Source: a virus (Duplodnaviria; Heunggongvirae; Uroviricota; Caudoviricetes). Taken from it: a DNA stretch of 64,000 nucleotides. The notes below the pieces were generated by a model. That model made no database searches. It was not told where the DNA came from and was given only the letters and a program-made list of their open reading frames with translations. Position numbers and translations under genes: made by a program. Positions 5,219-34,045 of this stretch are shown piece by piece. The stretch lies in the IMG/VR virus record IMGVR_UViG_3300037279_000046. One strand, written 5' to 3'. Every line of letters starts with the position of its first letter. The stretch's first letter is position 1.

Positions 5219-5635
5219 CTAGCTCTTATTGGGTCTGGTGTGTTCCACCAGACCCTTTATTTTTTCAGCCACGTATTCCGGATCGTTAAGTAATCGATTC
5301 AATCCGGAGGGGTGGGGCAATTCATAAAAGTTCACACCTAGCATCTTCAATGCGGTAGCGGCAGTTTTTCCTACAGCTATAATTGGTACATCTTTGTGGT
5401 GTGCAATGATCATTGCAAGATGGTTAAGTCTACCCTTGATCTCTTTCATCGTCAGTTGTCTATTGCCTGGTGTTGGTGTATTGACCAGATTGTGCATAAT
5501 AGATATGTTTATCCCTGCCTTTTCAATCCATTCGTGCAACGTTTTACCACTACCGGTGGACATATCGAATGCTCCATTGCCCTTAGACGCTTGCGATGGA
5601 TTAGATCCAATGAATAAAGCTGTGCGCGGTTTCAC
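5219..5635 (-). CDS. uracil-DNA glycosylase superfamily protein with atypical motif 1
   Basis: HPSGLN matches the UDG family-4 motif B (HPSPLN). Motif A is GSNPS instead of GEGPG, which is more like MUG GINPG. Overall spacing matches the UDG fold. Confidence 0.55.
   Translation of the reverse strand: MKPRTALFIGSNPSQASKGNGAFDMSTGSGKTLHEWIEKAGINISIMHNLVNTPTPGNRQLTMKEIKGRLNHLAMIIAHHKDVPIIAVGKTAATALKMLGVNFYELPHPSGLNRLLNDPEYVAEKIKGLVEHTRPNKS
5231..5266 (+). terminator. Rho-independent terminator
   Basis: Hairpin GGGTCTGGTG-TGTTC-CACCAGACCC followed by TTTATTTTTT. Confidence 0.65.
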
Positions 5636-6732
5636 GATGTCCTCGGTTTAATCTGTAAATGATAAAAATCACCAACCGTAGAGCAATTGATTTCTAAGTC
5701 TAGCATGGCTGAACTATCTTCAAAGTCACTATATTTTTCTTTAAAATAAAACTCACTTATGCCTGCCTGCCACAACATTCTGATACACTTAGTGCAAGGA
5801 GATAGGGTGCAATAAAGTATACAATCACCAGTCTTAACTCCTGATCGCACTGCGTTACATAATAAGTTTGTTTCTGCGTGTATTATATAATTATATTTTT
5901 CTGGACGAGATGTGGGTAGAGAACTGTCTGGTCCACCCCTAACGAACCCATTAAAACCTTCTGCCGTAACCGCTAATGTTTTAGGGTCTATTAATAGGGC
6001 TGCAACTTTAGTATGTATGTCGTGTGACTGTGACGCTATAACTACAGCTCTATCGTGATAGATTTTAAGTTTTTTCTCTGAGATCGGGTTATTGGTTTGG
6101 TTAAACTTGTTATTTTTAACTATTCTCTGTATTTGTTCTAAAAAATGTGTTGCAGAGTAATCTAATTTCATAGTGTTGCAAGTAGCACAACTTGTGACAC
6201 AGTTTGATGTTTGGTACCCAATAGAGTTATCCAATCTATCGATTCCATTGTATTTAACTATTGTGTGTTTATTTTTTTGAATGTTGGCAGGGGAAGCGTC
6301 ACAGTAGAAACAATTTTGAAAAATAAGCCCCTTAAACTCATCTAAGGTTAGATTAAAATCATAATTTCTAGCCTTAGCATTGCCCTTATAATCTAGAAAA
6401 ATATTATTGATAGATGTCGTTTTTAGCTGTTCGTCTGTTCGAGCATATCTATTGCCACAGTGGCCACATCCACTTGAGGTGCCATTAATTAAACTTGCAA
6501 CTTTTATTGACTTAAGAACACCACATTTACACTTTACATCTACATATCGTGTTTTTTTTGATTTTAAGTTTATCTTAATGTAAGGAAGAGACATTATTGT
6601 CCATTTATTTATGACAGAATTTAAGGCAATATTCTCTGTCTTAGATGGACGTTTCATACTCTTATTTAACCTCTGCCTACAAAGGCATTTCTCTATCTTT
6701 GATTCACACGTAGGATAGATACACCGACGCAT
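5632..6732 (-). CDS. HNH endonuclease fused in frame to dCMP deaminase
   Basis: N-terminus has a Cys-rich zinc ribbon plus YNGIDRLDNSIGYQTSNCVTSCATCN (HNH). C-terminus has HAETNLL...LSPCTKC (cytidine/dCMP deaminase Zn motifs H-A-E and PCxxC). No Met separates the two halves. Confidence 0.75.
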   Translation of the reverse strand: MRRCIYPTCESKIEKCLCRQRLNKSMKRPSKTENIALNSVINKWTIMSLPYIKINLKSKKTRYVDVKCKCGVLKSIKVASLINGTSSGCGHCGNRYARTDEQLKTTSINNIFLDYKGNAKARNYDFNLTLDEFKGLIFQNCFYCDASPANIQKNKHTIVKYNGIDRLDNSIGYQTSNCVTSCATCNTMKLDYSATHFLEQIQRIVKNNKFNQTNNPISEKKLKIYHDRAVVIASQSHDIHTKVAALLIDPKTLAVTAEGFNGFVRGGPDSSLPTSRPEKYNYIIHAETNLLCNAVRSGVKTGDCILYCTLSPCTKCIRMLWQAGISEFYFKEKYSDFEDSSAMLDLEINCSTVGDFYHLQIKPRTS

Positions 6733-8572: not shown

Positions 8573-9051
8573 TACAGGTCCTCGTCTTCCTCTTCGACCT
8601 TAGCTTCTTCTTCTTCTTCTTCTTTTTTCTGAGCAAAAGGATTATTCTCGTTGTCGTCTTCAGCAATACCTGCACGACAAGTGTAATCCTTAACGTCGTC
8701 AAACACGCCATCGAGCATCGACTCAGTAATGATGTCTTGGAAGTGAGCTTCGATATAATCAACCGTGTTCTCGTCCAAGATCTTCATAGCAGCAGCCAGA
8801 TCTTTTTGCAAGATAACAACTTTAGCATGATGCTGGTGATCTTTCCACATGATGCCGACAGTCTCACACATCTCTTCAAATGTGAAGACGCCGCGGATCG
8901 TAGAGGGTAAGAACTTAGCTTTAGAGCGATCGCCTGAGCTAACAGCCACGAGGAATGATTCTGATTTAAGGGAAGAGAGATCCATCGTCTCTAATTCACC
9001 AATGAAATCATCTCCGGTCTTAACTGGCAAGTTCATATTTGGATCAGACAT
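8572..9051 (-). CDS. hypothetical protein with poly-Glu C-terminal tail
   Basis: 159 aa; the (GAA)n run at about 8596-8640 encodes KKEEEEEEAKVEEEDEDL. Confidence 0.5.
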   Translation of the reverse strand: MSDPNMNLPVKTGDDFIGELETMDLSSLKSESFLVAVSSGDRSKAKFLPSTIRGVFTFEEMCETVGIMWKDHQHHAKVVILQKDLAAAMKILDENTVDYIEAHFQDIITESMLDGVFDDVKDYTCRAGIAEDDNENNPFAQKKEEEEEEAKVEEEDEDL

Positions 9052-9245
9052 TTATCACCTCTGGATTATATATTATTTCGGATCTTTTAACTCACCGTAT
9101 GTACGTGGACGCACAGTATACAGGGCAGTATAGCGAAAGCTATCTACCGATAAAGTCTTGATCTTGCCCTTAGAGTCTTGAATCTTAATGAAAGGATCTG
9201 TAGCTTGAAGTCGATTAGCTCTATCTCTAGGTGCAGGCTTAATCT

Positions 9246-16396: not shown

Positions 16397-16470
16397 TGGC
16401 AAACCGCCCAGGAATCGAACCCGGTCTAAGAGGTTTGGAATCTCTTGTGCTACCGTTACACCAGCGGAAT
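16397..16470 (-). tRNA. tRNA-Trp (anticodon CCA) candidate
   Basis: Minus-strand read has D-arm GTGT/GCAC, anticodon arm AGAGA-TTCCAAA-CCTCT, T-arm CCGGG-TTCGATT-CCTGG and an encoded CCA. The acceptor stem has two U-U mismatches. Confidence 0.5.
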
Positions 16471-17784: not shown

Positions 17785-19212
17785 TTACACCTTTACAGGA
17801 TAAGCACGAGCACGCACTTGATCCAGAGTTGATTGGTTAGTCAACACACCGTTCAAGAAGACCTGCTCAAGCAGTCCACCTTTTTCGTCAGCAGCAGATA
17901 CTTGATCTGTTGTGACGTAACGACCGTTGATGAAATCAAGACGCATTCTACCCTTGTGCGATTTCTTGCCCGAGTCAGTAATAGGGTCCTTAACGATGTC
18001 GCGCTCTTCTCCATTAACTTCTACGTAAGTGGTCTTAACAGCGAAGCCTTGGTCGTCACGGCTGTGCGATTGCAACAGCAATCCACCAACACCGATAACG
18101 AGATTAGAAGACGCAAATCCCATGCCCTTTAGACGCGCGAGGATGCACTCGTAACGGTCAAAATACATTCCGTCGCCGTAGATCAGGCCTACTTTAGGAT
18201 TCAATTCTTGGAAGCCTAATGCGTTCGTTGTCGTACCGAACTGGCGAGCCAACAGACGCATAGCACCGAGGTTCTCAGCAGAACCAGCAGGAGCAGACGG
18301 GTTTCCACAGATGATGAGCTCTGGGTCACCAGAGTCCGGGCGGAATACCACTTTGCCGTCACGAGCCATGATGCGCTTGTAAAGTACCTGAGTGAAGTTC
18401 TCAAGAACATTCCACAGGTTATAGGTATCAGACACGATAGAGACGATGCCGGTAGGGTAAGTGTTGAGCATGTGCTCAAACGCCTTCAACTCATGTTCCT
18501 GACCGTACGAACACATAACTGAGTGCTCAGATGCAGGGACAGAAGCACCGATAAGGCCAGTCGCAGCGTAGTTCTCCATCAAGAACTTAACAGCCGGAAC
18601 GGTATCTGTTCCACGGAAGTTGATCAAGTGAGCAGCACCAGAGATAGCCGCAGTCTCCTCAGACGAGCAACCACGGTATCCGAAGTCATGGACAGCCCAA
18701 TCGCAGTGGAGACGGTTGCCTACAGTTTCATCCGCGTATGTGTCTACAAGGTTACGCAACTTCATAGAGTACGAACCAACAGTTGTCGGGTTCCATACTT
18801 TAAGAACGAGCGACTCAAAGAAGCCAACTGTCCAAGCGAAGTCAGGATGAGTATTGGTCATCGTGAGAAGAACGTTCTTAACGGGCAGAACAGTTCCTTC
18901 TGGAACAGCTTTGATCTCCAAGGGGATATAACCAAGGTCTGCCAATGCGTGCATCTTTTCAAAGATGTGGCGCGGGGTAGGTCCGAGAATCGATTCACGT
19001 ACCTGCAAGAACTCGTTCACCATTGGGTGAGTGATCTTCTGTGCCAAGTAGTTCTTCAAGATAGGCTGAAGCCCATTGAAGAGCGTGAACGGAATCTTCT
19101 TGTCGGAGCGAGCAACGAGATAGGCGTAGGCCTTAGTGATCCCCTCTGGGAACTGCTCCATGTGCCCCATCTTATATACGTCAGTGCAAAGTAATACGTT
19201 ATCGTTAATCAT
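17785..19212 (-). CDS. nadV: nicotinamide phosphoribosyltransferase (NAMPT/NadV family)
   Basis: 475 aa with DFGYRG, GTDTV and FRPDSGDP, the hallmark NAMPT/NAPRT type II PRT motifs. Confidence 0.85.
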   Translation of the reverse strand: MINDNVLLCTDVYKMGHMEQFPEGITKAYAYLVARSDKKIPFTLFNGLQPILKNYLAQKITHPMVNEFLQVRESILGPTPRHIFEKMHALADLGYIPLEIKAVPEGTVLPVKNVLLTMTNTHPDFAWTVGFFESLVLKVWNPTTVGSYSMKLRNLVDTYADETVGNRLHCDWAVHDFGYRGCSSEETAAISGAAHLINFRGTDTVPAVKFLMENYAATGLIGASVPASEHSVMCSYGQEHELKAFEHMLNTYPTGIVSIVSDTYNLWNVLENFTQVLYKRIMARDGKVVFRPDSGDPELIICGNPSAPAGSAENLGAMRLLARQFGTTTNALGFQELNPKVGLIYGDGMYFDRYECILARLKGMGFASSNLVIGVGGLLLQSHSRDDQGFAVKTTYVEVNGEERDIVKDPITDSGKKSHKGRMRLDFINGRYVTTDQVSAADEKGGLLEQVFLNGVLTNQSTLDQVRARAYPVKV

Positions 19213-19220
19213 GTTTCTCC

Positions 19221-19463
19221 TTAAAAGTTAAATGTAGCTGTTACGTAGAAGCGGACTTCGCCCTCGTCTTCTTCTACTGAGTAGTCGAACGTTGTACCAT
19301 CATCAAAATGTTCTGCGAGAGCATCAACCTTAGCCTGCGCAAGAGTGTGCTCCACAGACATATCAACCCCTGGGATCTTCTTCACAACGTGAATTGGTTT
19401 CTTCTTCTTAGGGTCGATGGTATCGCTCACGCTTCCACCATATCTGGATCGCAGACGATCCAA
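19221..19463 (-). CDS. hypothetical protein
   Basis: 80-aa ORF between nadV and the macro gene; overlaps the macro gene 3' end. Confidence 0.4.
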   Translation of the reverse strand: MDRLRSRYGGSVSDTIDPKKKKPIHVVKKIPGVDMSVEHTLAQAKVDALAEHFDDGTTFDYSVEEDEGEVRFYVTATFNF

Positions 19464-19936
19464 TTGATTCTTGGATAATCTTTTAAGAGGATTTCAAGGA
19501 TAAGTTCTGAGTCTTTCCAAGGTACAGCGAACAGACCAGAGTTAAACTTATTAGAGTAGACGTCGATCTGTGGGTACGTGTCGCTTGGGTGGGCGAGATA
19601 GATCTTACGTAAGAGATCACGGAGAGCTAGAGTTGTATTGATCTTGATCTCTTCTACGCCGTCTTTCTTAGGTCCGTAGTCATGAGATGTAACGATCCAG
19701 CCGACCCAGTGAGCTTCGGATTCAGGGAACGATGATAGACCAGCAAGACCTACAGCCGTTCCACGCTGCATGTTAGCAGACTCGCAGAACATCTTGTAGT
19801 CGAGAAAGCTCTGAAGATACTTCTCTTTGAAAGGCTTGGCAATGCCAGAACCCCAGACACCCTGCGAGTTGCAGGCATGAATGATTACACTCTCACGAGG
19901 AGCGTCAAAGAGACTCATCTTCTTGTGGGTTACCAT
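19427..19936 (-). CDS. macro domain protein (ADP-ribose-binding or -processing)
   Basis: VIIHACNSQGVWGSGIAKPF matches the macro-domain N-x6-GGGVxxAI-type motif. Confidence 0.7.
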   Translation of the reverse strand: MVTHKKMSLFDAPRESVIIHACNSQGVWGSGIAKPFKEKYLQSFLDYKMFCESANMQRGTAVGLAGLSSFPESEAHWVGWIVTSHDYGPKKDGVEEIKINTTLALRDLLRKIYLAHPSDTYPQIDVYSNKFNSGLFAVPWKDSELILEILLKDYPRINWIVCDPDMVEA

Positions 19937-20754
19937 ACTTTATATCCTTCCGGGTTCCTGAGCAGAGAGTTCGTGGTGTGAATATCACGGATCCCTGCAT
20001 CAAATAATACCTGCTTCCCTTTTGAGAATAGTCCGTGTGAGACTGCTAGGTCGATTGGTCCTGTCTTATATTCTTTAAGTGCTTCAGCTACTTTGATGAA
20101 GGTCATCCCGCCGTCGCAGATGTCGTCGATGATTAGGACACTCTTGCCGTAGAGATCCTGGTGAGATGTATTAACTTTAAGTCCAGTGATCTCGCCCGTC
20201 TGCTGGTTGCGAACCTTCTCGCACCAGATGAACTGCTTACCAGTGGTCTTAGCGTAGCGCTCAGCTGCGCCTTTGTCTGGGTAACATACAAAGTCATAAC
20301 CGATGGTGTTAAACAGAGTCTGATGAAACTCTTTGGGAGTTGTAGACTCCATTGGAAAGACGAGATCAGACTTGGAGTGTGGGTCAAAAGCCTCGATGCG
20401 CGTGATACCTGCGTTATATAGGATCTCTGTGAATGTCTTGAGCGCGAAGCTCAACTTATTGTTTACTTCCTTATCTTGACGAGCGTAAGGAAGATAAGGA
20501 CATACAAGATCAACACTGGTATCGAAAACGTCATAGCATAACTGCGCCACTTGGCATACTTGGATTAACTCAGCTTCATTCTCAAACAGCCATAGTATAT
20601 ATGTGACGCTGTTCGGATCCATCTTTGACTCATCAATCTTCCAGACCTGGGAAGTTCCATCTGGAAAGATGGTTATCGTAAAACTTACTTCTTCGCCGTC
20701 GCTGATGAGCTTAATCATGTGTTCTCTCCCAGTAAGAAATCTAAGTGGCGCCAC
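19930..20754 (-). CDS. prs: ribose-phosphate pyrophosphokinase family (PRPP synthetase or ADPR-pyrophosphokinase-like)
   Basis: PRPP-binding loop VLIIDDICDGGMTF plus LPYARQDK. Confidence 0.85.
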   Translation of the reverse strand: MAPLRFLTGREHMIKLISDGEEVSFTITIFPDGTSQVWKIDESKMDPNSVTYILWLFENEAELIQVCQVAQLCYDVFDTSVDLVCPYLPYARQDKEVNNKLSFALKTFTEILYNAGITRIEAFDPHSKSDLVFPMESTTPKEFHQTLFNTIGYDFVCYPDKGAAERYAKTTGKQFIWCEKVRNQQTGEITGLKVNTSHQDLYGKSVLIIDDICDGGMTFIKVAEALKEYKTGPIDLAVSHGLFSKGKQVLFDAGIRDIHTTNSLLRNPEGYKVW

Positions 20755-21215
20755 ATAGCATCGTGCTCGCCGTCTTTCTTGAGCATCAGCTTGAAGTGCG
20801 GATACTCTTTCTTGTACATGTCAAGCTGTTTCGCTTGATCTAGTACAGACCGTTCTACGTTTGCTATACGGTCAGCCAGCTTCAGGGTCGTAGCCTCTCT
20901 AGAGGCTTGAATCTTAGGGTAGGTCTTTTCGTGACGCTCTTTGCGGTTCTTACCAGGCTCGTTTGTTACTCGGTGAACTAGATCTGCTACATGCCTACCG
21001 AATGTAATCTCGATCTGGAACACTGTTGCATCTGTGTCTTCGACTACATCATGCAACCAGGCTGCGACCTGAAGGTCCTCGCTATCAAACTTGAAGCGGC
21101 GCAAGACTTCAGCTACGGCAGCGAGATGCTCTGTGTAGGGAGAATTCTCCCCGTATTTCTGGTCTTTGTGCTTTGCTGCTGCAAATGCCGCTGCTGCTTG
21201 AATAGCGAGGCTCAT
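20715..21215 (-). CDS. HD-domain phosphohydrolase, SpoT/Mesh1-like (p)ppGpp-hydrolase-type
   Basis: KDQKYGENSPYTEHLAAVA...AAWLHDVVEDT matches the RelA/SpoT HD hydrolase pattern. Confidence 0.6.
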   Translation of the reverse strand: MSLAIQAAAAFAAAKHKDQKYGENSPYTEHLAAVAEVLRRFKFDSEDLQVAAWLHDVVEDTDATVFQIEITFGRHVADLVHRVTNEPGKNRKERHEKTYPKIQASREATTLKLADRIANVERSVLDQAKQLDMYKKEYPHFKLMLKKDGEHDAMWRHLDFLLGENT

Positions 21216-21339
21216 ATTAGTCTTTCTTCTGTGTTGCCGCTTCTTTAATCAACTTGATACCAACGTATAGTACGAGAGAAGCTACGCCAAGGATCAATAC
21301 TCCGATACCGATATCAACTAATGCGATCATATTTTCTCC

Positions 21340-21386
21340 TTAAATAAGTCTATCTAGAAAAGGCACCACCCGGAGGTGATGCCTTC
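21340..21386 (-). terminator. Rho-independent terminator
   Basis: Minus-strand hairpin AAGGCATCACCTCC/GGGTGGTGCCTT followed by TTTTCTAGA, just 3' of the SPFH gene. Confidence 0.5.
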
Positions 21387-21396
21387 AAAGATATAC

Positions 21397-22650
21397 TTAG
21401 TTGTCTTCAGACTTGTTTGCTGCAGCAGGCACTTTAGTGCGTGGAGCTTTAGCAGGTTGATCTTTGTTCATGCGATCGTTCAAATCCATGAAGGACTTAA
21501 GACCGATTGCGTCGAAGGGGTTCATTGCCGATTGACCGTTAGATCCACCGCCGATTACCATCATGCCTGGGAACTGAACACCAGCAAGCTCATGTGCTAC
21601 ACCGATGCGAGTCTCTTTGTCGATCGTCGCACGCTCAAGGGGAGTAAGACCTGCTTGAACTTTGAGGCGGTTAACTTCAGCAAGAGCTTTACCGTTCGTT
21701 ACTTCAGCCGCAGCATCTTGTTCAGCTTGTTTGCGTTTCAGCTGAGATACTTCGAACTCTTTCTGAGCGATAGTGACTTCTTTGATCTTCTCAACTTCTT
21801 GCTTAGCTTTCTCAATCGCGATCTGAGCATTACCTTGTTCGCGTGCAGTGATCGCATCTTGCTTAGCTTTTTCAGCGTTAGCTTTAGCGACAACTTTCAT
21901 CTGCTCAGCTTCTTTTTTCTTCTGGATCAGAGCATCGATAGTCTGGTCGAAGTCGATGTCTTTGATAACGAACTGGATGATGGTTACGTTATAAGCTTTG
22001 AGCGGAGAGATCTTGCGAACAACTGGCTGTCCAGCTTTGTCAAGCTTGATGTTGACTTCACGAGTCACGAACTCATTGCCGTCTGCATCTTTCTCTTTGA
22101 ATTCCTTAGCTTCAGTCTCGTAGATCCCGTTCTTTACTTGATCTTCCACAAGTGAAGTGAACTCAGAGCGACGAGTAGAGTACGACTCTTCAGCGCGCAT
22201 CAGAGTAGCCGTCTGCATCAAGGCTTCAGCAACAGTCTGACGAATCAGATCGTGCTTGACGCGCTCGTAAGACTTGAAGTCTTTATGCAGGAGCTTCTGA
22301 GTCTCAGGGTCAGAAGGTAGACGGAATTTGATGCCGCCAGACACCTTCGCAGTACCGCCGTCGTTGAAGCGAATGTCGATCGTGTCTGACTCAGCACCTT
22401 TGCCGCCGTCAAGATCTGACTTCGAGAAGTAGTACATGTCCGACACGTGGTAAGTTGTTACGTTACCGAAGAGCTTCAGATACGTACCTGACTCATTGTG
22501 AACAGTTACATCACCAGTAACAGCTGCCTGTTTAATCTGATAATAGCCTTGGTCATTCGTCGTGAACACTTCACGTCCGACCGTTGCCAGGATAAGAACT
22601 GCGACCAATCCGCCTACGGCGAGACCAATCAATTTAACTCGTGCGTCCAT
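21397..22650 (-). CDS. SPFH/band-7 (prohibitin/HflK-like) membrane protein
   Basis: N-terminal TM helix, SPFH core, and a long EAEQ..AKA..AKQ coiled coil typical of HflK/stomatin/prohibitin. Confidence 0.8.
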   Translation of the reverse strand: MDARVKLIGLAVGGLVAVLILATVGREVFTTNDQGYYQIKQAAVTGDVTVHNESGTYLKLFGNVTTYHVSDMYYFSKSDLDGGKGAESDTIDIRFNDGGTAKVSGGIKFRLPSDPETQKLLHKDFKSYERVKHDLIRQTVAEALMQTATLMRAEESYSTRRSEFTSLVEDQVKNGIYETEAKEFKEKDADGNEFVTREVNIKLDKAGQPVVRKISPLKAYNVTIIQFVIKDIDFDQTIDALIQKKKEAEQMKVVAKANAEKAKQDAITAREQGNAQIAIEKAKQEVEKIKEVTIAQKEFEVSQLKRKQAEQDAAAEVTNGKALAEVNRLKVQAGLTPLERATIDKETRIGVAHELAGVQFPGMMVIGGGSNGQSAMNPFDAIGLKSFMDLNDRMNKDQPAKAPRTKVPAAANKSEDN

Positions 22651-22974: not shown

Positions 22975-23104
22975 ATAAAATCCTTTGTGATGAGTTGTGT
23001 GATTGGATTTTACAGATTAAAAGAATGGAGTCCCACCGCGGTAATTCTCCGCGTTATCTGGGTTTGCAAGCCAGAACATTAATTTTATGTTAGAGGGACA
23101 AGAG

Positions 23105-23192
23105 TGGAGGAGAGCAACGGACTTGCACCGTAAACCTCGAAAGGTCCGTGTTGCTTAGCAGGCAAACCCAGCGCTTCGCCGGTTTACTCTCC
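23105..23192 (-). tRNA. type II (long variable arm) tRNA candidate, anticodon GCU (Ser)
   Basis: Acceptor GGAGAGT/GCTCTCC, anticodon arm TTTGC-CTGCTAA-GCAAC, long variable region, T-arm ACGG-TGCAAGT-CCGT and encoded CCA. Its 5' end abuts the next tRNA. Confidence 0.45.
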
Positions 23193-23193
23193 A

Positions 23194-23263
23194 TGGTAGA
23201 CCTATGAGGAGTCGAACCTCGTTAGCTAGATTAGAAGTCCAGCGACCTTCCTTTGGTAGGTCC
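23194..23263 (-). tRNA. compact tRNA-like gene, anticodon UCU (Arg) candidate, reduced D-arm
   Basis: Acceptor GGACCTA/TAGGTCT (7 bp), anticodon arm CTGGA-CTTCTAA-TCTAG, T-arm GAGG-TTCGACT-CCTC, encoded CCA. Only 14 nt lie between the acceptor and anticodon stems. Confidence 0.4.
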
Positions 23264-23270
23264 ATAAAAC

Positions 23271-23347
23271 TGGTACTCGAGGTGAGACTTGAACTCACAC
23301 TGTGCAGGGTTTAAGTCTGCTGCCTCTGCCAGTTGGGGTAGTCAAGC
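23271..23347 (-). tRNA. tRNA-like gene, anticodon loop CUUAAAC (anticodon UAA if canonical)
   Basis: Acceptor GCTTGAC/CTCGAGT (6 of 7 bp), perfect T-arm GTGAG-TTCAAGT-CTCAC, A73 and encoded CCA. The D-arm is poorly paired and the variable loop is 5 nt. Confidence 0.4.
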
Positions 23348-23348
23348 A

Positions 23349-23437
23349 TGGTGAGTGATGAAGGAATCGCACCATTCGTCGCCTTCCCACATGTTTTATG
23401 ACAACTGTTTTACAGACAGCTTGCGGGGACATCACTC
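23349..23437 (-). tRNA. tRNA-like element with unresolved fold (89 nt)
   Basis: Perfect 7-bp acceptor GAGTGAT/ATCACTC plus A-CCA; packed exactly between flanking tRNAs. A GCTGT-CTGTAAA-ACAGT hairpin is present, but no canonical D/T arms. Confidence 0.3.
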
Positions 23438-23438
23438 T

Positions 23439-23534
23439 TGGAGGAAGGTATCCGATTCGCACGGATGAAACCCAGTGTTAGTGGGTTTACCAGGGTTCAA
23501 GCCTGGCGCAATAATCTATCTCTGCCAACCTTCC
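23439..23534 (-). tRNA. tRNA-Ser (anticodon UGA), type II
   Basis: Acceptor GGAAGGT/ACCTTCC, 3-bp D-stem, anticodon arm CCAGG-CTTGAAC-CCTGG, variable arm AAACCCA-loop-TGGGTTT, T-arm ATCCG-TGCGAAT-CGGAT and encoded CCA. Confidence 0.6.
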
Positions 23535-23535
23535 G

Positions 23536-24063
23536 TTAAAATTTATTCGACTTCTTTAAGTTCTCTTCCCTAGGTAAATGTTGTAAATTCCAGGGCACAT
23601 GTAGTCCACTTACGTTATCACCCTGTAATGGGACTATATGGTCCACATGGTGCCCTTCAGGACGATCTTTATAAATCTGCTTAATGTCGTCCATATTGAC
23701 CCATTTTGGAGTTTGCAACTTAATCAACTTTCTTCTCTGTGTAGCATCGATGGACTCTTTCTGTCTAAATTCTTCGTTGGTTCTGTATTTCTCTCTTCTG
23801 AAGAGTTTAGTTCTTTCTTGCTCTGCTGCTCTATATTCTTCGTTATTGTTATAACGCTTTTTCATGTTTTTTAGATTTTGAGCATTATGTCTAGCTTTAA
23901 CATTCGGATCTTTTAAAGATTCAGTTTTGCGTTTGGCTGAACTCAAAATTCTCTTTTGTCTATAAACAGGATCTGAGTCATACTTCCACTTAATATAATG
24001 GTTTTGACAAAACCCTTTACCCTTATGTTTTCTCTCACAGCCTTCAATACTACACTTCTTCAT
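23536..24063 (-). CDS. HNH homing-endonuclease-like protein embedded in the tRNA array
   Basis: N-terminal Cys/His zinc-finger ([19 protein letters not shown]). C-terminal [31 protein letters not shown] is an HNH core. Confidence 0.75.
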
Positions 24064-24202
24064 AAATTCCCATAAAGCGATCTAAAGAGGAGCGACTATA
24101 CGCGGAGTTCTATCTTTGTGTTATCATCTGTCTTGATGTTATGTTGCCATAACATTCTTTGCCCATAACCCGACTGCTAAGCGAGTAGCCTCATCGCAGT
24201 CC

Positions 24203-24210
24203 TATTTATA
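24203..24210 (-). promoter_or_regulatory. T4-type late promoter-like TATAAATA on the minus strand
   Basis: Plus strand TATTTATA, about 140 nt upstream of the HNH start. Confidence 0.3.
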
Positions 24211-24427
24211 GTTGCTACACATACCCTGTCGCCCGTTTCACCCGTTAGATTTACCCAACGACTCGTCTCTGATGCCGTGACTTACCTTACGGTAGGTGGC
24301 CGTTAACCACTATGTTACTCTATGTAGCTCCGACGTTCTTCTCTCCAACATTGCATTGGTCGAGCGATAACCTGTCGCTCCTCTTTAGATCATAAAATTT
24401 TAGTTTCAGAATCCCCTAAGTAAAGTT

Positions 24428-24503
24428 TGGTCCCACCTGTCCGTTCCGCCCGGACCTCTTCGCTTCTTCAGAGCGACACTTTCACTAGATTGGCTTAAAT
24501 GGG
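24428..24503 (-). tRNA. tRNA-like gene, anticodon GAA (Phe) candidate with non-canonical T-loop
   Basis: Acceptor CCCATTT/AGGTGGG (7 bp, 2 GU), perfect anticodon arm TCGCT-CTGAAGA-AGCGA, T-stem GTCCG/CGGAC with loop GGCGGAA, A73 and encoded CCA. Abuts tRNA-Asn. Confidence 0.4.
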
Positions 24504-24504
24504 A

Positions 24505-24580
24505 TGGCTGACGAGACAGGGTTCGAACCTGTGACCTAACCGTTAACAGCGGTTTGCTCTACCAACTGAGCTACACGTCA
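24505..24580 (-). tRNA. tRNA-Asn (anticodon GUU)
   Basis: Canonical cloverleaf: TA-GCTC-AGTTGGTA-GAGC, anticodon arm AACCG-CTGTTAA-CGGTT, T-arm ACAGG-TTCGAAC-CCTGT, encoded CCA. Confidence 0.8.
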
Positions 24581-24925
24581 ATGAATTATAATGAATGTTT
24601 GGATTTAACGTCTCGCGGACTTACGTATTAGTTTAGCTATTAAAGCAACTAAAATACGAAAAATCATTAATCGCAGAACGCGATAAATTTGATCTCAAAT
24701 ATGATGTATGAGCGAATGCTTTCATAAGGTCTAGCATACCACAAGATTTAGATTAAGAAGTGAATTTATCAACAAATAATTTGTTTGCGCTTATTAGTGG
24801 ATTTATATGGACGGTAATGTCGCAATAGGTCACAAAGTCATCCCAGGATATAACCTTGAGTTTGAACAGTGTGTACATGAGGGCTTTATAGGCAATAATT
24901 TTTTGAGAGTTAACTATTCCACCCC

Positions 24926-25565: not shown

Positions 25566-25997
25566 TCATAACAACTTTAAGTGTTTTGTAAGAGGATCGA
25601 TGACTTCGGGATAGTCAGGTCCAATAGCTACAGCAGTATATGTTGGAACACCATCGAACTCTGTAAGTCCTGCATCTTGAATTAGAGAGCAGAGAATCCC
25701 AGCAGCTTGCGCCTTATTAAAGATGTCGCGAAGCTCTTCTTCAGAATCTACTGATACGCAGATCTTTGTGAACTTGCCGTCAAGCCACTCTTGAATGCGC
25801 TTGAAACCAAGAGTATCTGCACTTAGGAATAAGCCACCCTCATCTGCGAAATCTGTATCTGGATCACTAGGAATAGAACGCGACTCCAAAAGATTAACAA
25901 TAACTGCCATTGATGCATGAGCACCTTGAGCAACCATCTTGCCCTTGCGCATGTTTAGATCTTTACGTAAGATGATGACCTGCTTTGGTGCCGACAT
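25566..25997 (-). CDS. peptidyl-tRNA hydrolase, PTH2 family
   Basis: KQVIILRKDLNMRKGKMVAQGAHAS ... TEFDGVPTYTAVAIGP matches the Pth2 pattern. Start set at the internal Met MSAPK. Confidence 0.75.
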   Translation of the reverse strand: MSAPKQVIILRKDLNMRKGKMVAQGAHASMAVIVNLLESRSIPSDPDTDFADEGGLFLSADTLGFKRIQEWLDGKFTKICVSVDSEEELRDIFNKAQAAGILCSLIQDAGLTEFDGVPTYTAVAIGPDYPEVIDPLTKHLKLL

Positions 25998-25998
25998 A

Positions 25999-26289
25999 TT
26001 ATTCCTTATAGTAAGCGTTCGTCTTATCTGTGTGATCCGTGATATCAACCACATGATTGATAGATGGATCAAAGTTCATGATGTGGTTCTTCACCAGCAT
26101 GTTGAGCGTGTACTTAGCGCCAGCACAACCTCGACATCCGCCGATCATCTTTACATAAGCGATAACGAAGTAATGTTCAGCATTGTCGCCACGATTTATC
26201 TCTGTGATCTCAACACGACCACGATGTTGACCAAGTAGAGTATTTACACTCTCGTCAAGCATCGCTTGTACTTCTTGAACTGTTTTCAT
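25999..26289 (-). CDS. Nfu/NifU-C-type Fe-S cluster scaffold-like protein
   Basis: MIGGCRGCAGAKYTL matches the Nfu GGCxxC...TL motif. Confidence 0.6.
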   Translation of the reverse strand: MKTVQEVQAMLDESVNTLLGQHRGRVEITEINRGDNAEHYFVIAYVKMIGGCRGCAGAKYTLNMLVKNHIMNFDPSINHVVDITDHTDKTNAYYKE

Positions 26290-28045: not shown

Positions 28046-29236
28046 CTATGTCTCTTCTGGTTCTATTTTAGGTGCTTCTTGAGGCTTAACTGGGTTTGCG
28101 TAATCATACATTCCAGGCTTAACAGTAAAATGCATGTGATCAGGTGCTGCGTGGTGCGAAGCCAGTTCGCGCATTTGTTTATTTGAGCCTGAATTATTAC
28201 TCTGACCTGGGAGTCTAGATCCTATAGTCTGAATGTGAGATACTGGAACCCATGCAGAGTGAAGATCGCCGTACGTCTTAGCTGCATCCTCGTTAGTCCA
28301 CCAGCCTTCGCCTTTGTGACCTACTTTTCCATCTTTAACTTCAAAGAGAGAATCTTTCCAGTCAGGACCGTAGTTTTCTTCAGAGGCCGCTTCATCATAG
28401 TTCATGCCGCGATGAAGCTTCAAATGAAGCTCTGGCTTACCAGTAGCAGAGTTGGTGCGTGTCTGAAAATGGCTCTTAGCGTCTGGTTGGCCATTAAAAT
28501 ATTTAACTGCCGCTAACTGTGTTCGCTTTTCCTCTGATGGATCATTAGTACGAGGATTATGCTCTAATGTACTAGCACTTCTAGGAAAAAAGTCATCTTC
28601 ATTCTTGATTGGGTTTACAGGCTTGGGGGCAAGGCGACGCATAGCACCTTTTTCCAAGCCATCAGACTTTGGGTCTTCACTCTCCTGGTCGCGATCAAAC
28701 AGCTCAATAAAGTCAGAGAGACCTTGAGGAGATAGGGACTTGATGAGGTCAGAGAGCTGAGCGTCATCTTGGAACTTCGCCTTCATCAGAGTGTAGAGTT
28801 CATCTACAGTGATGTCGTTCTTCTTGAGGCGTTTCTTCCAGGCGCGAAGCTTCTTAGGGTCAACATGATGACGACCACGGTTAAGCTTCTCAGGGACTGC
28901 ACGGGTGTTAGATGCTGCGTAGCCCTTGCTGTTATCTTTACGATCTGGAGAGAGTTTCTCGCCGGTCTTCTTCTCAGCAGTTTGAATCTGCTTCACGATG
29001 CTCTTACGTGAACCAAGTCCTGATGACTTCTTAGAAGCCGTACCGTTCTTGCCCTTTTGGCGGCGAAGAGCGTCATCAGCTTTAGTCTGAGCACGTTGTG
29101 AAGAACCTGGCTTCTTCTTAGCAGCGGCAAGTTTCTTTAAGCAAGCTGAGCAGCGGCCACTAGGGTTTCCCTTAGAGGCAGAGGCGCCACCACAGCGAGG
29201 ACATTTCTTTTCGAGAACTTCAGTGAATTCACTCAT
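28046..29236 (-). CDS. zinc-ribbon protein with long basic disordered region
   Basis: N-terminal CPRCGG...CSAC, about 150 aa of Lys/Arg/Ser-rich low complexity, and an unassigned C-terminal domain. Confidence 0.5.
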   Translation of the reverse strand: MSEFTEVLEKKCPRCGGASASKGNPSGRCSACLKKLAAAKKKPGSSQRAQTKADDALRRQKGKNGTASKKSSGLGSRKSIVKQIQTAEKKTGEKLSPDRKDNSKGYAASNTRAVPEKLNRGRHHVDPKKLRAWKKRLKKNDITVDELYTLMKAKFQDDAQLSDLIKSLSPQGLSDFIELFDRDQESEDPKSDGLEKGAMRRLAPKPVNPIKNEDDFFPRSASTLEHNPRTNDPSEEKRTQLAAVKYFNGQPDAKSHFQTRTNSATGKPELHLKLHRGMNYDEAASEENYGPDWKDSLFEVKDGKVGHKGEGWWTNEDAAKTYGDLHSAWVPVSHIQTIGSRLPGQSNNSGSNKQMRELASHHAAPDHMHFTVKPGMYDYANPVKPQEAPKIEPEET

Positions 29237-32653: not shown

Positions 32654-34045
32654 TTATTTTCTATGGCTTGTACTACCATCAGGACATTTTACTGTGTCAC
32701 CCAAATTTTTCATTGGGTGGTCTTCTGTTCCGCCCTTAGAGATAATCCATAGTATTTGAGGAGGATTTTGACCTGGTCTAAGCCATGACTCCCAGTCAAC
32801 CTTACTGTAACATCCATCGGTAATAAAAATATTAAGATCACCTTTGCGCTTAAATACATCCTCAAGCGACTTAGTGAGATCTGTACCACCAGACTGAATC
32901 ATAGATTTGTCAATCTTCGTGCCCATCTTGTACTGCTGACGTCCGTAGAGATCAGTGTGGAAGAACGAGAGGTTACACTTTCGTGCGCCAACCTTCAAGA
33001 ACTGATCCACGATCTCAAGGAATTCATTCAACTCCTCAGTGCTGATAGAACCAGACGTATCGAGGTGAAGCTCAAGCTTAGGCAGATCGCCTACTTTAGT
33101 GCCTGGAGCTTTGAAGCCCAGACGCTTGTTCTTGCGCATCCACGTGCCTTTGCGGTTGTGACCGTTGGCGTGTTTCTTCATCGCCATCAAGATCAACGCT
33201 TTGTAGTTCAACTCAGCACGGCGAGTCTTGATGTCCTCAAGAAGATCTTTGACGTGACCAGGGAGATCGTCGTATGACAGACGAGCTTTAACCATTGCAC
33301 GTTTTACGAGCTCTTCAGTAGCATCGAGCATCTCTTTTTCGTCGCCAGCGCCATCCCACATGTGTTCGTCGATCGTCTGTGGAAGGTCACCAGTCTCAGC
33401 TCCGCCACCAGCATTGCCCTGACCTTCGCCATCGCCATCGCCATCTTCTGGATCTTCAAAGCGCTTGATCAATTTCTCGTAGTAATGTTCCATGGTCTGA
33501 ACAGTCTGCCAAGGAGTCTTGGTGCCAGTCTTTTCATCTACGTCATGGTAATGAGCTACATCGATACACTGGCCTGGGCAAAGCTCATTGGGGCAAGGCT
33601 GACCGTCTTTAGTACACTGTGGGCAACCAGCAGGAAGATCCTTAATGAATTGATTGATCGCCATATCAGCTGCGATGTTCATGAGCATGCGCTTACGAGC
33701 GCTGATCTTCATGAACGGAACGCGCAATGGATGCTTATGTGTGATGTGAGAAAGTTCATGAATAAACACGGCTTTACGCTGAGCTGCGTTCAATTTCTTA
33801 CAGAAGAAGTACGGATTTACCAACATATCCCAGCGCTTAGCATCTGTATTGAACATGATACCGGCTGTAGGAAGTTGGTGGGAATAGGAGATTGTCAAGC
33901 ACTGCAGAACCGATCCTAAGAACGGGTGCGTTTTTGAAGTCTCATAGATGGTAGTGGCCAAGCATTGGGATTTCTCCTCAACTGGCACGAACTCTTTGTC
34001 CATCTGCTTTTTAATCTCTTTAGGATCTCTAATTCTTGATGACAT
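32654..34045 (-). CDS. VWA-domain protein with N-terminal HExxH metallopeptidase-like domain (MoxR partner; CobT/DUF2201-VWA-like)
   Basis: FIHELSHITHKH (HExxH) in the N-terminal half; MIDAS motif DTSGSIS in the C-terminal half; acidic Gly/Asp linker. Confidence 0.7.
   Translation of the reverse strand: MSSRIRDPKEIKKQMDKEFVPVEEKSQCLATTIYETSKTHPFLGSVLQCLTISYSHQLPTAGIMFNTDAKRWDMLVNPYFFCKKLNAAQRKAVFIHELSHITHKHPLRVPFMKISARKRMLMNIAADMAINQFIKDLPAGCPQCTKDGQPCPNELCPGQCIDVAHYHDVDEKTGTKTPWQTVQTMEHYYEKLIKRFEDPEDGDGDGEGQGNAGGGAETGDLPQTIDEHMWDGAGDEKEMLDATEELVKRAMVKARLSYDDLPGHVKDLLEDIKTRRAELNYKALILMAMKKHANGHNRKGTWMRKNKRLGFKAPGTKVGDLPKLELHLDTSGSISTEELNEFLEIVDQFLKVGARKCNLSFFHTDLYGRQQYKMGTKIDKSMIQSGGTDLTKSLEDVFKRKGDLNIFITDGCYSKVDWESWLRPGQNPPQILWIISKGGTEDHPMKNLGDTVKCPDGSTSHRK

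Follow-up and report, generated by a model that had tools for sequence, protein, structure and literature searches.

A tRNA gene array with non-canonical members and a neighboring RNase P RNA gene in an uncultivated phage

We examined a run of transfer RNA (tRNA) and tRNA-like genes in a 64,000-nucleotide (nt) stretch of viral DNA, here called the window (IMG/VR record IMGVR_UViG_3300037279_000046, Caudoviricetes). The original prediction, made from the sequence, placed five abutting units with 7-nt acceptor pairs and encoded CCA at 23105–23534 and likened them to a T4-type polycistronic tRNA precursor with several non-canonical members. The five units are present at exactly these coordinates, all on the minus strand and reading 5' to 3', and comparative evidence supports both the tRNA array and the irregular nature of several members. 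The count of five was too low, however, as the run has a sixth member, tRNA-Cys(GCA), and lies within a larger RNA gene cluster. We consider that the segment 23026–24580 (minus strand) is probably a tRNA operon belonging to an uncultivated phage with a genome of about 175 kb, in which the odd tRNA shapes would be selected features and the products are presumed to decode. In transcription order, the cluster contains the following features.

24505–24580, minus strand: tRNA-Asn(GUU), canonical, the first gene of the RNA cluster, called by ARAGORN and by Rfam (67.9 bits)
24428–24503, minus strand: tRNA-Phe(GAA)-like gene, called by ARAGORN only with -mt, ending in ACCA
24083–24383, minus strand: RNase P RNA, type A, 301 nt (Rfam RF00010, 149.5 bits, E = 4e-46)
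23536–24063, minus strand: HNH endonuclease open reading frame (ORF), 175 aa, with PHROG matches to HNH and endonuclease VII
23439–23534, minus strand: unit 1, tRNA-Ser(UGA), class II, 7/5, 96 nt including CCA
23349–23437, minus strand: unit 2, element X, 89 nt, tRNA-Tyr(GUA)-type with a rearranged core
23271–23347, minus strand: unit 3, tRNA-Leu(UAA), 5-nt variable region, class-I-like body, A73
23264–23270, minus strand: spacer GUUUUAU, 7 nt, between Leu and Arg
23194–23263, minus strand: unit 4, tRNA-Arg(UCU), 70 nt, miniature D-arm
23105–23192, minus strand: unit 5, tRNA-Ser(GCU), (8/4) type
23026–23099, minus strand: unit 6, tRNA-Cys(GCA), outside the predicted interval and 5 nt past Ser(GCU)

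The spacers among the five predicted units are, in order, A, T, GTTTTAT and T. Each unit shows a 7-nt acceptor pairing followed by N-CCA, perfect in four cases and with one mismatch in Leu. Counted singly, such modules are at chance level and are no evidence by themselves: on both strands, the window holds 54 inverted 7-bp pairs with NCCA within 66–100 nt, and Markov-shuffled sequences of 64 kb hold about 34 ± 6. This frequency of single acceptor-like pairs throughout the window could suggest that the whole pattern is a chance clustering of inverted repeats before CCA, but the probability of this is negligible, because six units abut head-to-tail on one strand and all are conserved in other genomes with compensatory changes. 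Two or three of the units are also called by independent tRNA models.

Among the five units, ARAGORN calls only Ser(UGA) and Leu(UAA) at default settings, and the Rfam tRNA model (RF00005) passes Leu (29.7 bits) and Arg (32.1 bits, in a wrong register at 23197–23271). Cys is likewise missed at the default settings of the two programs, Ser(GCU) is found by ARAGORN only at -ps80, and X was not called by ARAGORN or Rfam at any setting used. The low-threshold ARAGORN runs (-ps80, -ps70 and -mt) gave many false calls in unrelated DNA and served as leads only. The program check suggested with the original prediction therefore recovers two or three of five units by default, whereas the covariance comparison with relatives suggested alongside it supports every unit. 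With half of the array missed by standard annotation, phage tRNA complements are therefore under-counted.

The six units share a 12-bp acceptor/T branch followed by a discriminator and CCA, divided 7/5 in Ser(UGA), Leu, Arg and Cys and 8/4 in Ser(GCU) and X, and the stems of this branch covary. All six also have a 5-bp anticodon stem, which covaries, and a 7-nt loop with U33 and a purine at position 37. The loops read CUUGAAC in Ser(UGA), CUGUAAA in X, CUUAAAC in Leu, CUUCUAA in Arg, CUGCUAA in Ser(GCU) and UUGCAAA in Cys. A canonical D-arm (stem of 3–4 bp, loop of 8–11 nt, G18G19, set between position 9 and the anticodon arm) is not a feature of the set, only Leu being near-canonical, and the canonical T-loop T54-U55-C56-R57-A58 is found only in Leu and Arg.

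The window is phage DNA, encoding NAMPT, a class II ribonucleotide reductase, DNA ligase, dCMP deaminase and many HNH genes, and is identical to part of a 174,948-bp metagenome contig in the ENA (ERZ27249170). Blastn searches against cultured phages returned only generic tRNA-level matches, and tblastn with the neighboring Band_7 protein returned only matches of about 32% identity, with no close cultured relative. Homologs of the Band_7 protein number in the hundreds, on contigs about 175 kb long. Twelve relatives with the RNA cluster were gathered from the DNA around several of these homologs and by motif scans for the Cys-tRNA and Arg units in viral and metagenome contigs. The array and the RNase P RNA recur in L028, L029, L031, L033, L034, L038, L040, L041, L042, L053 and L066. 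Four IMG/VR relatives found through Band_7 (L001–L004, 51–69% identity) have no array at that position. Scans of viral contigs for exact patterns gave nothing relevant for a 22-mer from P4 of the RNase P RNA or a 21-mer from X, and gave 22 matches, all by chance, for a 15-mer from the Ser T-arm.

The arrays are modular. The order Ser-X-Leu-Arg-Ser-Cys of the window corresponds to Ser-Leu-Arg-Ser in L028, Ser-Cys in L029 and Ser-Arg-Ser-Cys in L033, and the longest abutting chain, in L040, has eight units. X occupies the junction between Ser(UGA) and Leu, where L028 has merely AU. Alignment with these genomes shows that every unit is conserved, with the predicted helices maintained by compensatory substitutions and the anticodons kept. 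Of the explanations offered for the irregular units, it is that of bona fide odd tRNAs which gains support, as the five units are conserved with 10–24 compensatory pairs per unit and each retains the anticodon and discriminator expected from its amino acid.

The Arg(UCU) unit has six distinct homologs, all 70 nt in length. The acceptor stem is paired in all of them, with compensatory changes at six of its seven pairs; over the whole tRNA 10 of 20 pairs are compensatory, and the covariation score was reached by none of 500 shuffles. The acceptor GGACCUA/UAGGUCU of the window becomes GGAUCUA/UAGAUCU, AGUUCCA/UGGAACU, AGCUUCA/UGAAGCU and GCAUCUA/UAGAUGC in homologs. A miniature D-arm adjoins the acceptor directly. 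It consists of a 3-bp stem (8–10/16–18; C8-C9-N10 with N16-G17-G18), in which pair 10-16 covaries, and a 5-nt loop, NNGGA, which retains GG as well as a base resembling A20. The T-loop, UUCGACU, is canonical, and C49 and A65 are mismatched in all members. The truncated D-arm noted earlier is therefore borne out by covariation.

Rfam instead places this gene in the register 23197–23271 as a canonical 75-nt cloverleaf with the acceptor AGUUUUA/UAGGUCU and a 4-bp D-stem, GACC/GGUC. The match exceeds the gathering threshold at 32.1 bits, and the GGACC/GGUC complementarity of the window copy is used in its single-sequence minimum free energy (MFE) fold. The required acceptor strand, however, comes from the Leu-Arg spacer, which is GUUUUAU in the window, GTTTTTAC in L028, CTTC in L034 and 12 nt in L041, and which does not covary with the Arg 3' acceptor strand. 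In L034, L040, L041, L038 and L042 the spacer differs in length and sequence and is unable to pair, and the supposed 5' strand of the D-stem lacks complementarity to GGUC. What covaries with the 3' strand in place of the spacer is the segment aligned to GGACCUA, as the last three acceptor variants above illustrate. The Rfam register is therefore refuted by covariation, Rfam having taken the spacer as an acceptor strand, and a canonical cloverleaf is highly improbable. In its shortness (66 nt before the discriminator and CCA) the Arg unit resembles D-arm-reduced mitochondrial tRNAs (mt-tRNAs) such as mt-tRNA-Ser(AGY) and those of nematodes (reviewed in PMC7609411). Unlike those tRNAs it is miniaturized rather than armless, keeping 3 bp of D-stem, the GGA loop and a canonical T-loop, and it occurs in a phage of bacteria, where such tRNAs are unexpected.

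Element X had been described as having a perfect acceptor stem and no recognizable arms. This description does not hold, since X contains a T-arm and an arm of the anticodon type as well as a further covarying helix. The acceptor has 8 bp (1–8/78–85) and the T-stem 4 bp (63–66/74–77) with the loop UGCGAUU. An anticodon-type arm (18–22/30–34) carries the loop CUGUAAA, a variable-arm stem is formed by GUC/GAC (36–38/58–60), and A73 precedes CCA. The additional helix, H2, pairs 11–16 with 47–52. A single nucleotide separates strand 11–16 from the anticodon stem, and there is no standard D-arm 5' of the anticodon arm. H2 instead encloses the anticodon arm, and because it crosses the GUC/GAC variable stem the topology is of the pseudoknot type. 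The acceptor, H2 and the hairpin all appear in the MFE fold.

Nine X sequences are known in the phage clade, each 89 nt long and free of indels. Pairing is complete (100%) in the acceptor, with four compensatory pairs, and reaches 98% in H2, also with four; the 5-bp stem 18–22/30–34 has three, and its loop is YUGUAAM with GUA invariant. None of 500 shuffles reached the covariation score of these 11 compensatory pairs. A covariance model (R1) built from the nine sequences brought the family to 19 members, including examples from other viral contigs, Verrucomicrobiota, Phycisphaerae and one unclassified bacterium, and the non-clade members all lie inside large tRNA arrays. A degenerate pattern of X run against bacterial genomes gave mostly chance matches, which were kept only if confirmed by nhmmer or the covariance model. 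In the wider set (n = 19), pairing extends to 95% of cells, compensatory change is seen at 19 of 23 pairs, G8-C is invariant as the eighth acceptor pair, and the 4-bp T-stem covaries. An alternative pairing proposed by RNAalifold (53–56/74–77) was discarded, as changes in its 5' strand break the pairs and 63–66/74–77 covaries in the wider set.

The anticodon GUA is invariant in 17 members. G1-C72, A73, GUA and GUC/GAC show no variation among the nine clade sequences, and the eight more distant members of the GUA type retain them. Compared with a canonical tRNA-Tyr (L106), X retains the anticodon arm of tyrosine and the GUC...GAC stem of the variable arm and lacks the D-loop and the one D strand that precede the anticodon arm; the strand complementary to 11–16 and an AAGG segment are relocated into the variable loop. 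Two members from tRNA arrays of bacterial metagenome-assembled genomes (MAGs; L131, 2756–2843, and L101, 3660–3747, both minus strand) have the same architecture with a UCU (Arg) anticodon loop, and these have GAC...GUC in place of GUC...GAC (U-A to A-U). Eight arrays outside the clade hold an X-like gene, and in seven of them no canonical tRNA-Tyr occurs within the DNA fetched.

In the Ser(GCU) unit the acceptor is 8 bp, the D-stem 6 bp with a 3-nt D-loop, the variable arm long and the T-stem 4 bp; U73 and the T-loop UGCAAGU are present. Across 10 homologs, 96% of cells pair and compensatory changes affect 24 of 32 pairs; the D-loop is 3–4 nt, the variable-arm stem 4–7 bp, and U73 is present in all 10. 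Pair 8-65 is A-U in nine and U-A in one, and the alternative 49-65 would be U.U in nine. The MFE fold matches the 8/4 structure. Ser(GCU) is thus of a known kind, the published (8/4) tRNA-Ser group, whose members with a long D-stem and U73 are known from phage tRNA clusters (Mukai et al. 2017, PMC5389517). It agrees with the (8/4) tRNA-Ser and allo-tRNAs as published in its stems, 3–4-nt D-loop, variable arm, U73, serine anticodon and location in a phage cluster; the copies of the window and L028 add G55 in the T-loop. X resembles the same group in its 8/4 branch and in having 6 bp of helix at the D position. What this helix closes in X, however, is the anticodon arm and not a tetraloop, an arrangement that we did not find in the passages of PMC5389517 reached by keyword search.

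Ser(UGA), with the T-loop UGCGAAU, a D-loop lacking GG and the discriminator U73, has a cloverleaf as its MFE fold (z = -2.6). Its 11 homologs show 97% of cells paired and 10 compensatory pairs, and the variable-arm stem covaries. It had been named as the only unit to fold cleanly, which was too strict, as Leu is likewise called by ARAGORN and the fold of Ser(GCU) is that of an 8/4 tRNA.

The Leu(UAA) unit shows the UAA loop, short variable region and A31.C39 mismatch noted in the original prediction. The short variable region is a family trait, also found in a Leu(CAA) paralog, and position 31.39 is often mismatched in the family (A.C or C.C). Eight homologs yield 16 compensatory pairs. The D-arm is near-canonical, with GG and with A23 bulged from the stem. 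The nearest sequence to the window copy is the Leu(CAA) paralog of L041 (83% identity), which implies a C34-to-U34 change in the anticodon of the window copy. The window copy scores 29.7 bits with Rfam, compared with 48–54 bits for its relatives, and with its stem mismatches at 7.66 and 10.26 it may be weakened or impaired.

Cys(GCA) has U73, a D-loop (AAAAUUA) without GG and the T-loop AGAAUUA, which varies freely across relatives except for the last two bases (NNNNNUA). Its 10 homologs have 99% of cells paired and five compensatory pairs. The window copy is found by ARAGORN only with -mt, and the homologs score 31.6–45 bits with Rfam. Overall, the Ser(UGA), Leu, Ser(GCU) and Cys families are 96–99% paired. 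The Phe-like gene has no D-stem, and its T-loop is GGCGGAA; ARAGORN identifies its homologs as Phe, and Rfam gives them 41–42 bits. Relative to L028, the window gene shows compensatory changes in the acceptor, anticodon and T stems, with GAA kept. In lacking the G18G19 and T54-Psi55-C56 signatures, Cys and Phe resemble many mt-tRNAs (PMC7609411).

The T-loops with G at position 55 that were noted previously (TGCGAAT, TGCGATT and TGCAAGT) are present and recur in relatives. T-loops starting with UGC are found in Ser(UGA) of the window and L029, in seven of the nine clade X sequences, in Ser(GCU) of the window and L028, and also in canonical-type Arg (L031 and L066) and Leu (L053); Ser(UGA) of L028 has C55. 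This scatter over different tRNA types indicates that a U55-to-G55 change arose repeatedly, across five tRNA types of the clade.

These data bear on whether the non-canonical units are decaying pseudogenes in a shrinking array with only one or two functional members. Such decay would fit the low or absent scores from standard detectors, the differing array membership among relatives and the extra mismatches of the window Leu copy. However, 94–99% of predicted pairs persist among the 6–19 homologs of each unit, and where a pair varies it has in most cases been altered on both sides. Neither the anticodon nor the discriminator base differs within a type, and X has the same length in all nine clade sequences. 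Such retention of pairs, anticodons and length requires purifying selection on structure, and we regard decay as very unlikely. The earlier suggestion of degenerating genes is accordingly rejected for the set as a whole, with only the window Leu copy showing two extra stem mismatches.

In every one of the 12 relatives for which sufficient sequence exists, the RNase P RNA gene lies directly upstream of Ser(UGA), scoring 139–214 bits. The window copy, at 149.5 bits against a threshold of 100, matches model positions 1–367 including the P4 core, and the catalytic-domain helices P1–P5 and P15–P18 are matched in full. After GGUGAAA, 43 consensus positions of the P13/P14 region are unmatched, and P12 is minimal. 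All 12 phage copies share GGGUGAAACGGGCGAC, leaving no room for P13/P14 at the usual place. The relatives are 301–422 nt in length, the window copy being the shortest; the variation is confined to P12–P14, and the catalytic domain is conserved. Compared with bacterial type-A RNase P RNA (RF00010), this RNA is phage-encoded, lies beside its tRNA genes and has a reduced specificity domain. In bacterial RNase P, the specificity domain reads the T-loop/D-loop corner of the pre-tRNA. A shorter RNase P RNA tends to accompany more non-U55 T-loops per array (Spearman -0.85 without L029 and -0.42 with it, uncorrected for relatedness), a weak correlation that we regard as a lead only. We found no report of a phage-encoded RNase P RNA in the literature searched. 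The gene would make phage control of tRNA maturation directly testable.

The reading of the cluster as a tRNA operon with selected odd shapes draws on the conservation and covariation of the units together with their retained anticodons and identity features. Judged from sequence, the discriminators and identity features appear to match synthetase use: U73 and GCA in Cys, A73 in Leu and Tyr, the GGA loop (with the A20-like base) and C35 in Arg, and a long variable arm with U73 in Ser. The use of these features by the synthetases is known from the literature. We propose that the cluster would be transcribed as one or a few precursors, that RNase P would cut each 5' end, possibly with a contribution from the phage RNase P RNA, and that exonucleases would trim the 3' ends to the encoded CCA. 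Host synthetases would then charge the products for translation of the phage genes, which freely use AGA, UCA and UUA (relative synonymous codon usage 1.37, 1.18 and 1.01), and/or the array tRNAs may replace host tRNAs destroyed by defense nucleases. Two other roles were considered and dropped. An attP or integration site would be expected to involve one tRNA rather than a six-gene run, and no integrase is nearby; a suppressor or recoding role is not indicated, as no anticodon of the set reads a stop codon. If charged and decoding, the odd tRNAs would widen the range of shapes known to be accepted by the bacterial translation machinery and would offer ready-made scaffolds for orthogonal tRNA design.

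The cluster is similar to that of phages T4 and T6 in its head-to-tail tRNA genes on one strand with spacers of a few nt, a likeness seen here at the level of the genes. Both contain a free-standing homing-type endonuclease gene (SegB in T4/T6, PMC13096335; HNH here) and a tRNA-sized RNA of unclear role among the tRNAs (X here). The present array differs in that CCA is encoded in all units, several members are not cloverleafs, an RNase P RNA gene is part of the cluster, the endonuclease is HNH rather than GIY-YIG in type, and the phage array has no sequence similarity to any cultured phage by blastn or tblastn. Maturation of the T4 tRNA cluster depends on RNase P, and the same would be expected here.

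With regard to X, we favor a tRNA-Tyr variant over a non-decoding tRNA-like RNA, placing the former at about even probability. It resembles class II bacterial tRNA-Tyr in G1-C72, A73, the CUGUAAA loop and the GUC...GAC stem. X would be a decoding-competent or at least chargeable tRNA-Tyr with a sequestered variable loop. The defense systems Septu and retron-Eco7 cut tRNA-Tyr in its variable loop, and phages counter this with variant or amplified tRNA-Tyr genes: the tRNA-Tyr of phage T5 escapes cleavage thanks to its distinctive variable loop, and in T6 the Tyr gene is amplified by a homing endonuclease located in the tRNA region (PMC13096335). The variable loop of X, drawn into a helix, would fit escape from such nucleases (Septu/PtuAB and retron-Eco7). 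Like the T5 tRNA-Tyr, which escapes retron-Eco7/Septu (PMC13096335), X has an altered variable loop, and resistance of X would be an analogy only. X differs from tRNA-Tyr and the T5 variant in having no D-loop or D 3' strand before the anticodon arm, and in carrying the complementary strand and GG segment inside a 19-nt variable loop with a crossing topology. The X family may be a natural structural answer to tRNA-Tyr variable-loop cleavage by defense systems.

Several observations count against the operon reading or against X as its tyrosine tRNA. ARAGORN at default and Rfam miss X and Ser(GCU) and mis-register Arg, a promoter and terminator scan of the region was uninformative, and the window Leu copy has stem mismatches at 7.66 and 10.26 that are seen in no relative. 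The X T-stem has a U.U mismatch in most clade members, and the variable stem rests on one compensatory pair seen in two sequences. The L069 array holds an X-like gene and a canonical tRNA-Tyr; therefore, X need not be the tRNA-Tyr of its array. In addition, the rationale of defense escape is borrowed from E. coli phages and would apply to X by analogy.

The decoy or processing-scaffold function once considered for several units survives solely for X. In this alternative X would be a stable tRNA-like RNA from the same precursor that does not decode, acting as a processing scaffold or as a decoy or sponge for a tRNA-Tyr-directed nuclease, a modification enzyme recognizing the U33-G34-U35 loop, or tyrosyl-tRNA synthetase (TyrRS). 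The T4 tRNA cluster likewise encodes stable RNAs without an assigned function. The core connectivity of X is unlike any tRNA proven on the ribosome, with H2 and the anticodon arm forming about 12 stacked layers from a three-way junction, and the weak T-stem and the co-occurrence in L069 point the same way. In addition, Mukai et al. reported irregular polycistronic tRNAs that are charged yet unused in translation (PMC5389517). However, X keeps the features of a TyrRS substrate (G1-C72, A73, a 7-nt loop containing GUA and U33, and GUC/GAC in the variable stem) as well as a 12-bp acceptor/T branch of the kind read by EF-Tu. The occurrence of the same architecture with a UCU anticodon fits an adaptor family rather than a Tyr-specific decoy, and most X-bearing arrays have no other Tyr gene in the DNA fetched. 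We therefore consider a non-decoding X possible, at a probability clearly short of even, and retain the tRNA-Tyr variant as the preferred interpretation.

More speculatively, the X RNAs with GUA and UCU anticodons may represent an undescribed natural 'permuted-core' tRNA fold, in which one D-stem strand and the GG segment would have moved into the variable loop to form a pseudoknot with the variable stem. Such RNAs would function in translation and be selected to hide the variable loop from nucleases of the Septu/PtuAB type, and co-evolution would have fitted the phage RNase P RNA, whose T-loop-reading domain is reduced, to the maturation of tRNAs in which D-loop/T-loop contacts are degenerate. 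We offer this combined proposal tentatively. In the literature searched, including a keyword search of the non-canonical tRNA review (PMC7609411), we did not find the mini-D-arm Arg, the X fold with Tyr and Arg anticodons, recurrent G55 or a companion RNase P RNA.

The HNH ORF is missing from the array-adjacent site in L028 and L033. L031 has an HNH-type ORF elsewhere in the cluster (1839–2399), the C-terminus of which resembles that of the window HNH by eye, and the clusters of L042 and L066 contain further, putatively endonuclease-like ORFs near the arrays. Since its position varies and it is absent from some relatives, the HNH gene looks like a mobile homing-endonuclease insertion, reminiscent of SegB in the T4/T6 tRNA region. 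Additional HNH/endonuclease VII-like ORFs are found in the window at 5632–6732, 28046–29236 and 32654–34045 (minus strand), one of them fused to a dCMP deaminase domain.

Downstream of the array, 17785–22650 (minus strand) encodes Band_7/SPFH, HD-domain, phosphoribosyltransferase, Macro domain and NAMPT proteins, and the group from Band_7 to NAMPT looks like an NAD-salvage/ADP-ribose cluster. Upstream, a PTH2 peptidyl-tRNA hydrolase gene is located at about 25566–26072 (minus strand). A non-coding stretch of about 170 nt lies 5' of tRNA-Asn (24581–24750, minus strand) and is conserved in L028, L031 and L033. It holds a terminator-like hairpin (24670–24684) and the conserved sequence GUAAGUCCRCGAGACG, and could be a promoter region or another small RNA.

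The window has one more tRNA gene, tRNA-Trp(CCA) at 16397–16470 (minus strand), 6.5 kb from the array and with a modest Rfam score of 39.6 bits. In L002, a more distant relative, a tRNA with a UAU anticodon (8870–8946) is followed by a tRNA-like element of about 106 nt (8957–9066) that ends in GGGACCA and has the T-loop UCCGAAU. L034 (146,658 bp, IMG/VR) is the same as L123 (LNEN01000305.1), which was deposited within a 'Cytophagales bacterium' MAG; this is either a weak hint of the host or a mis-binned phage contig.

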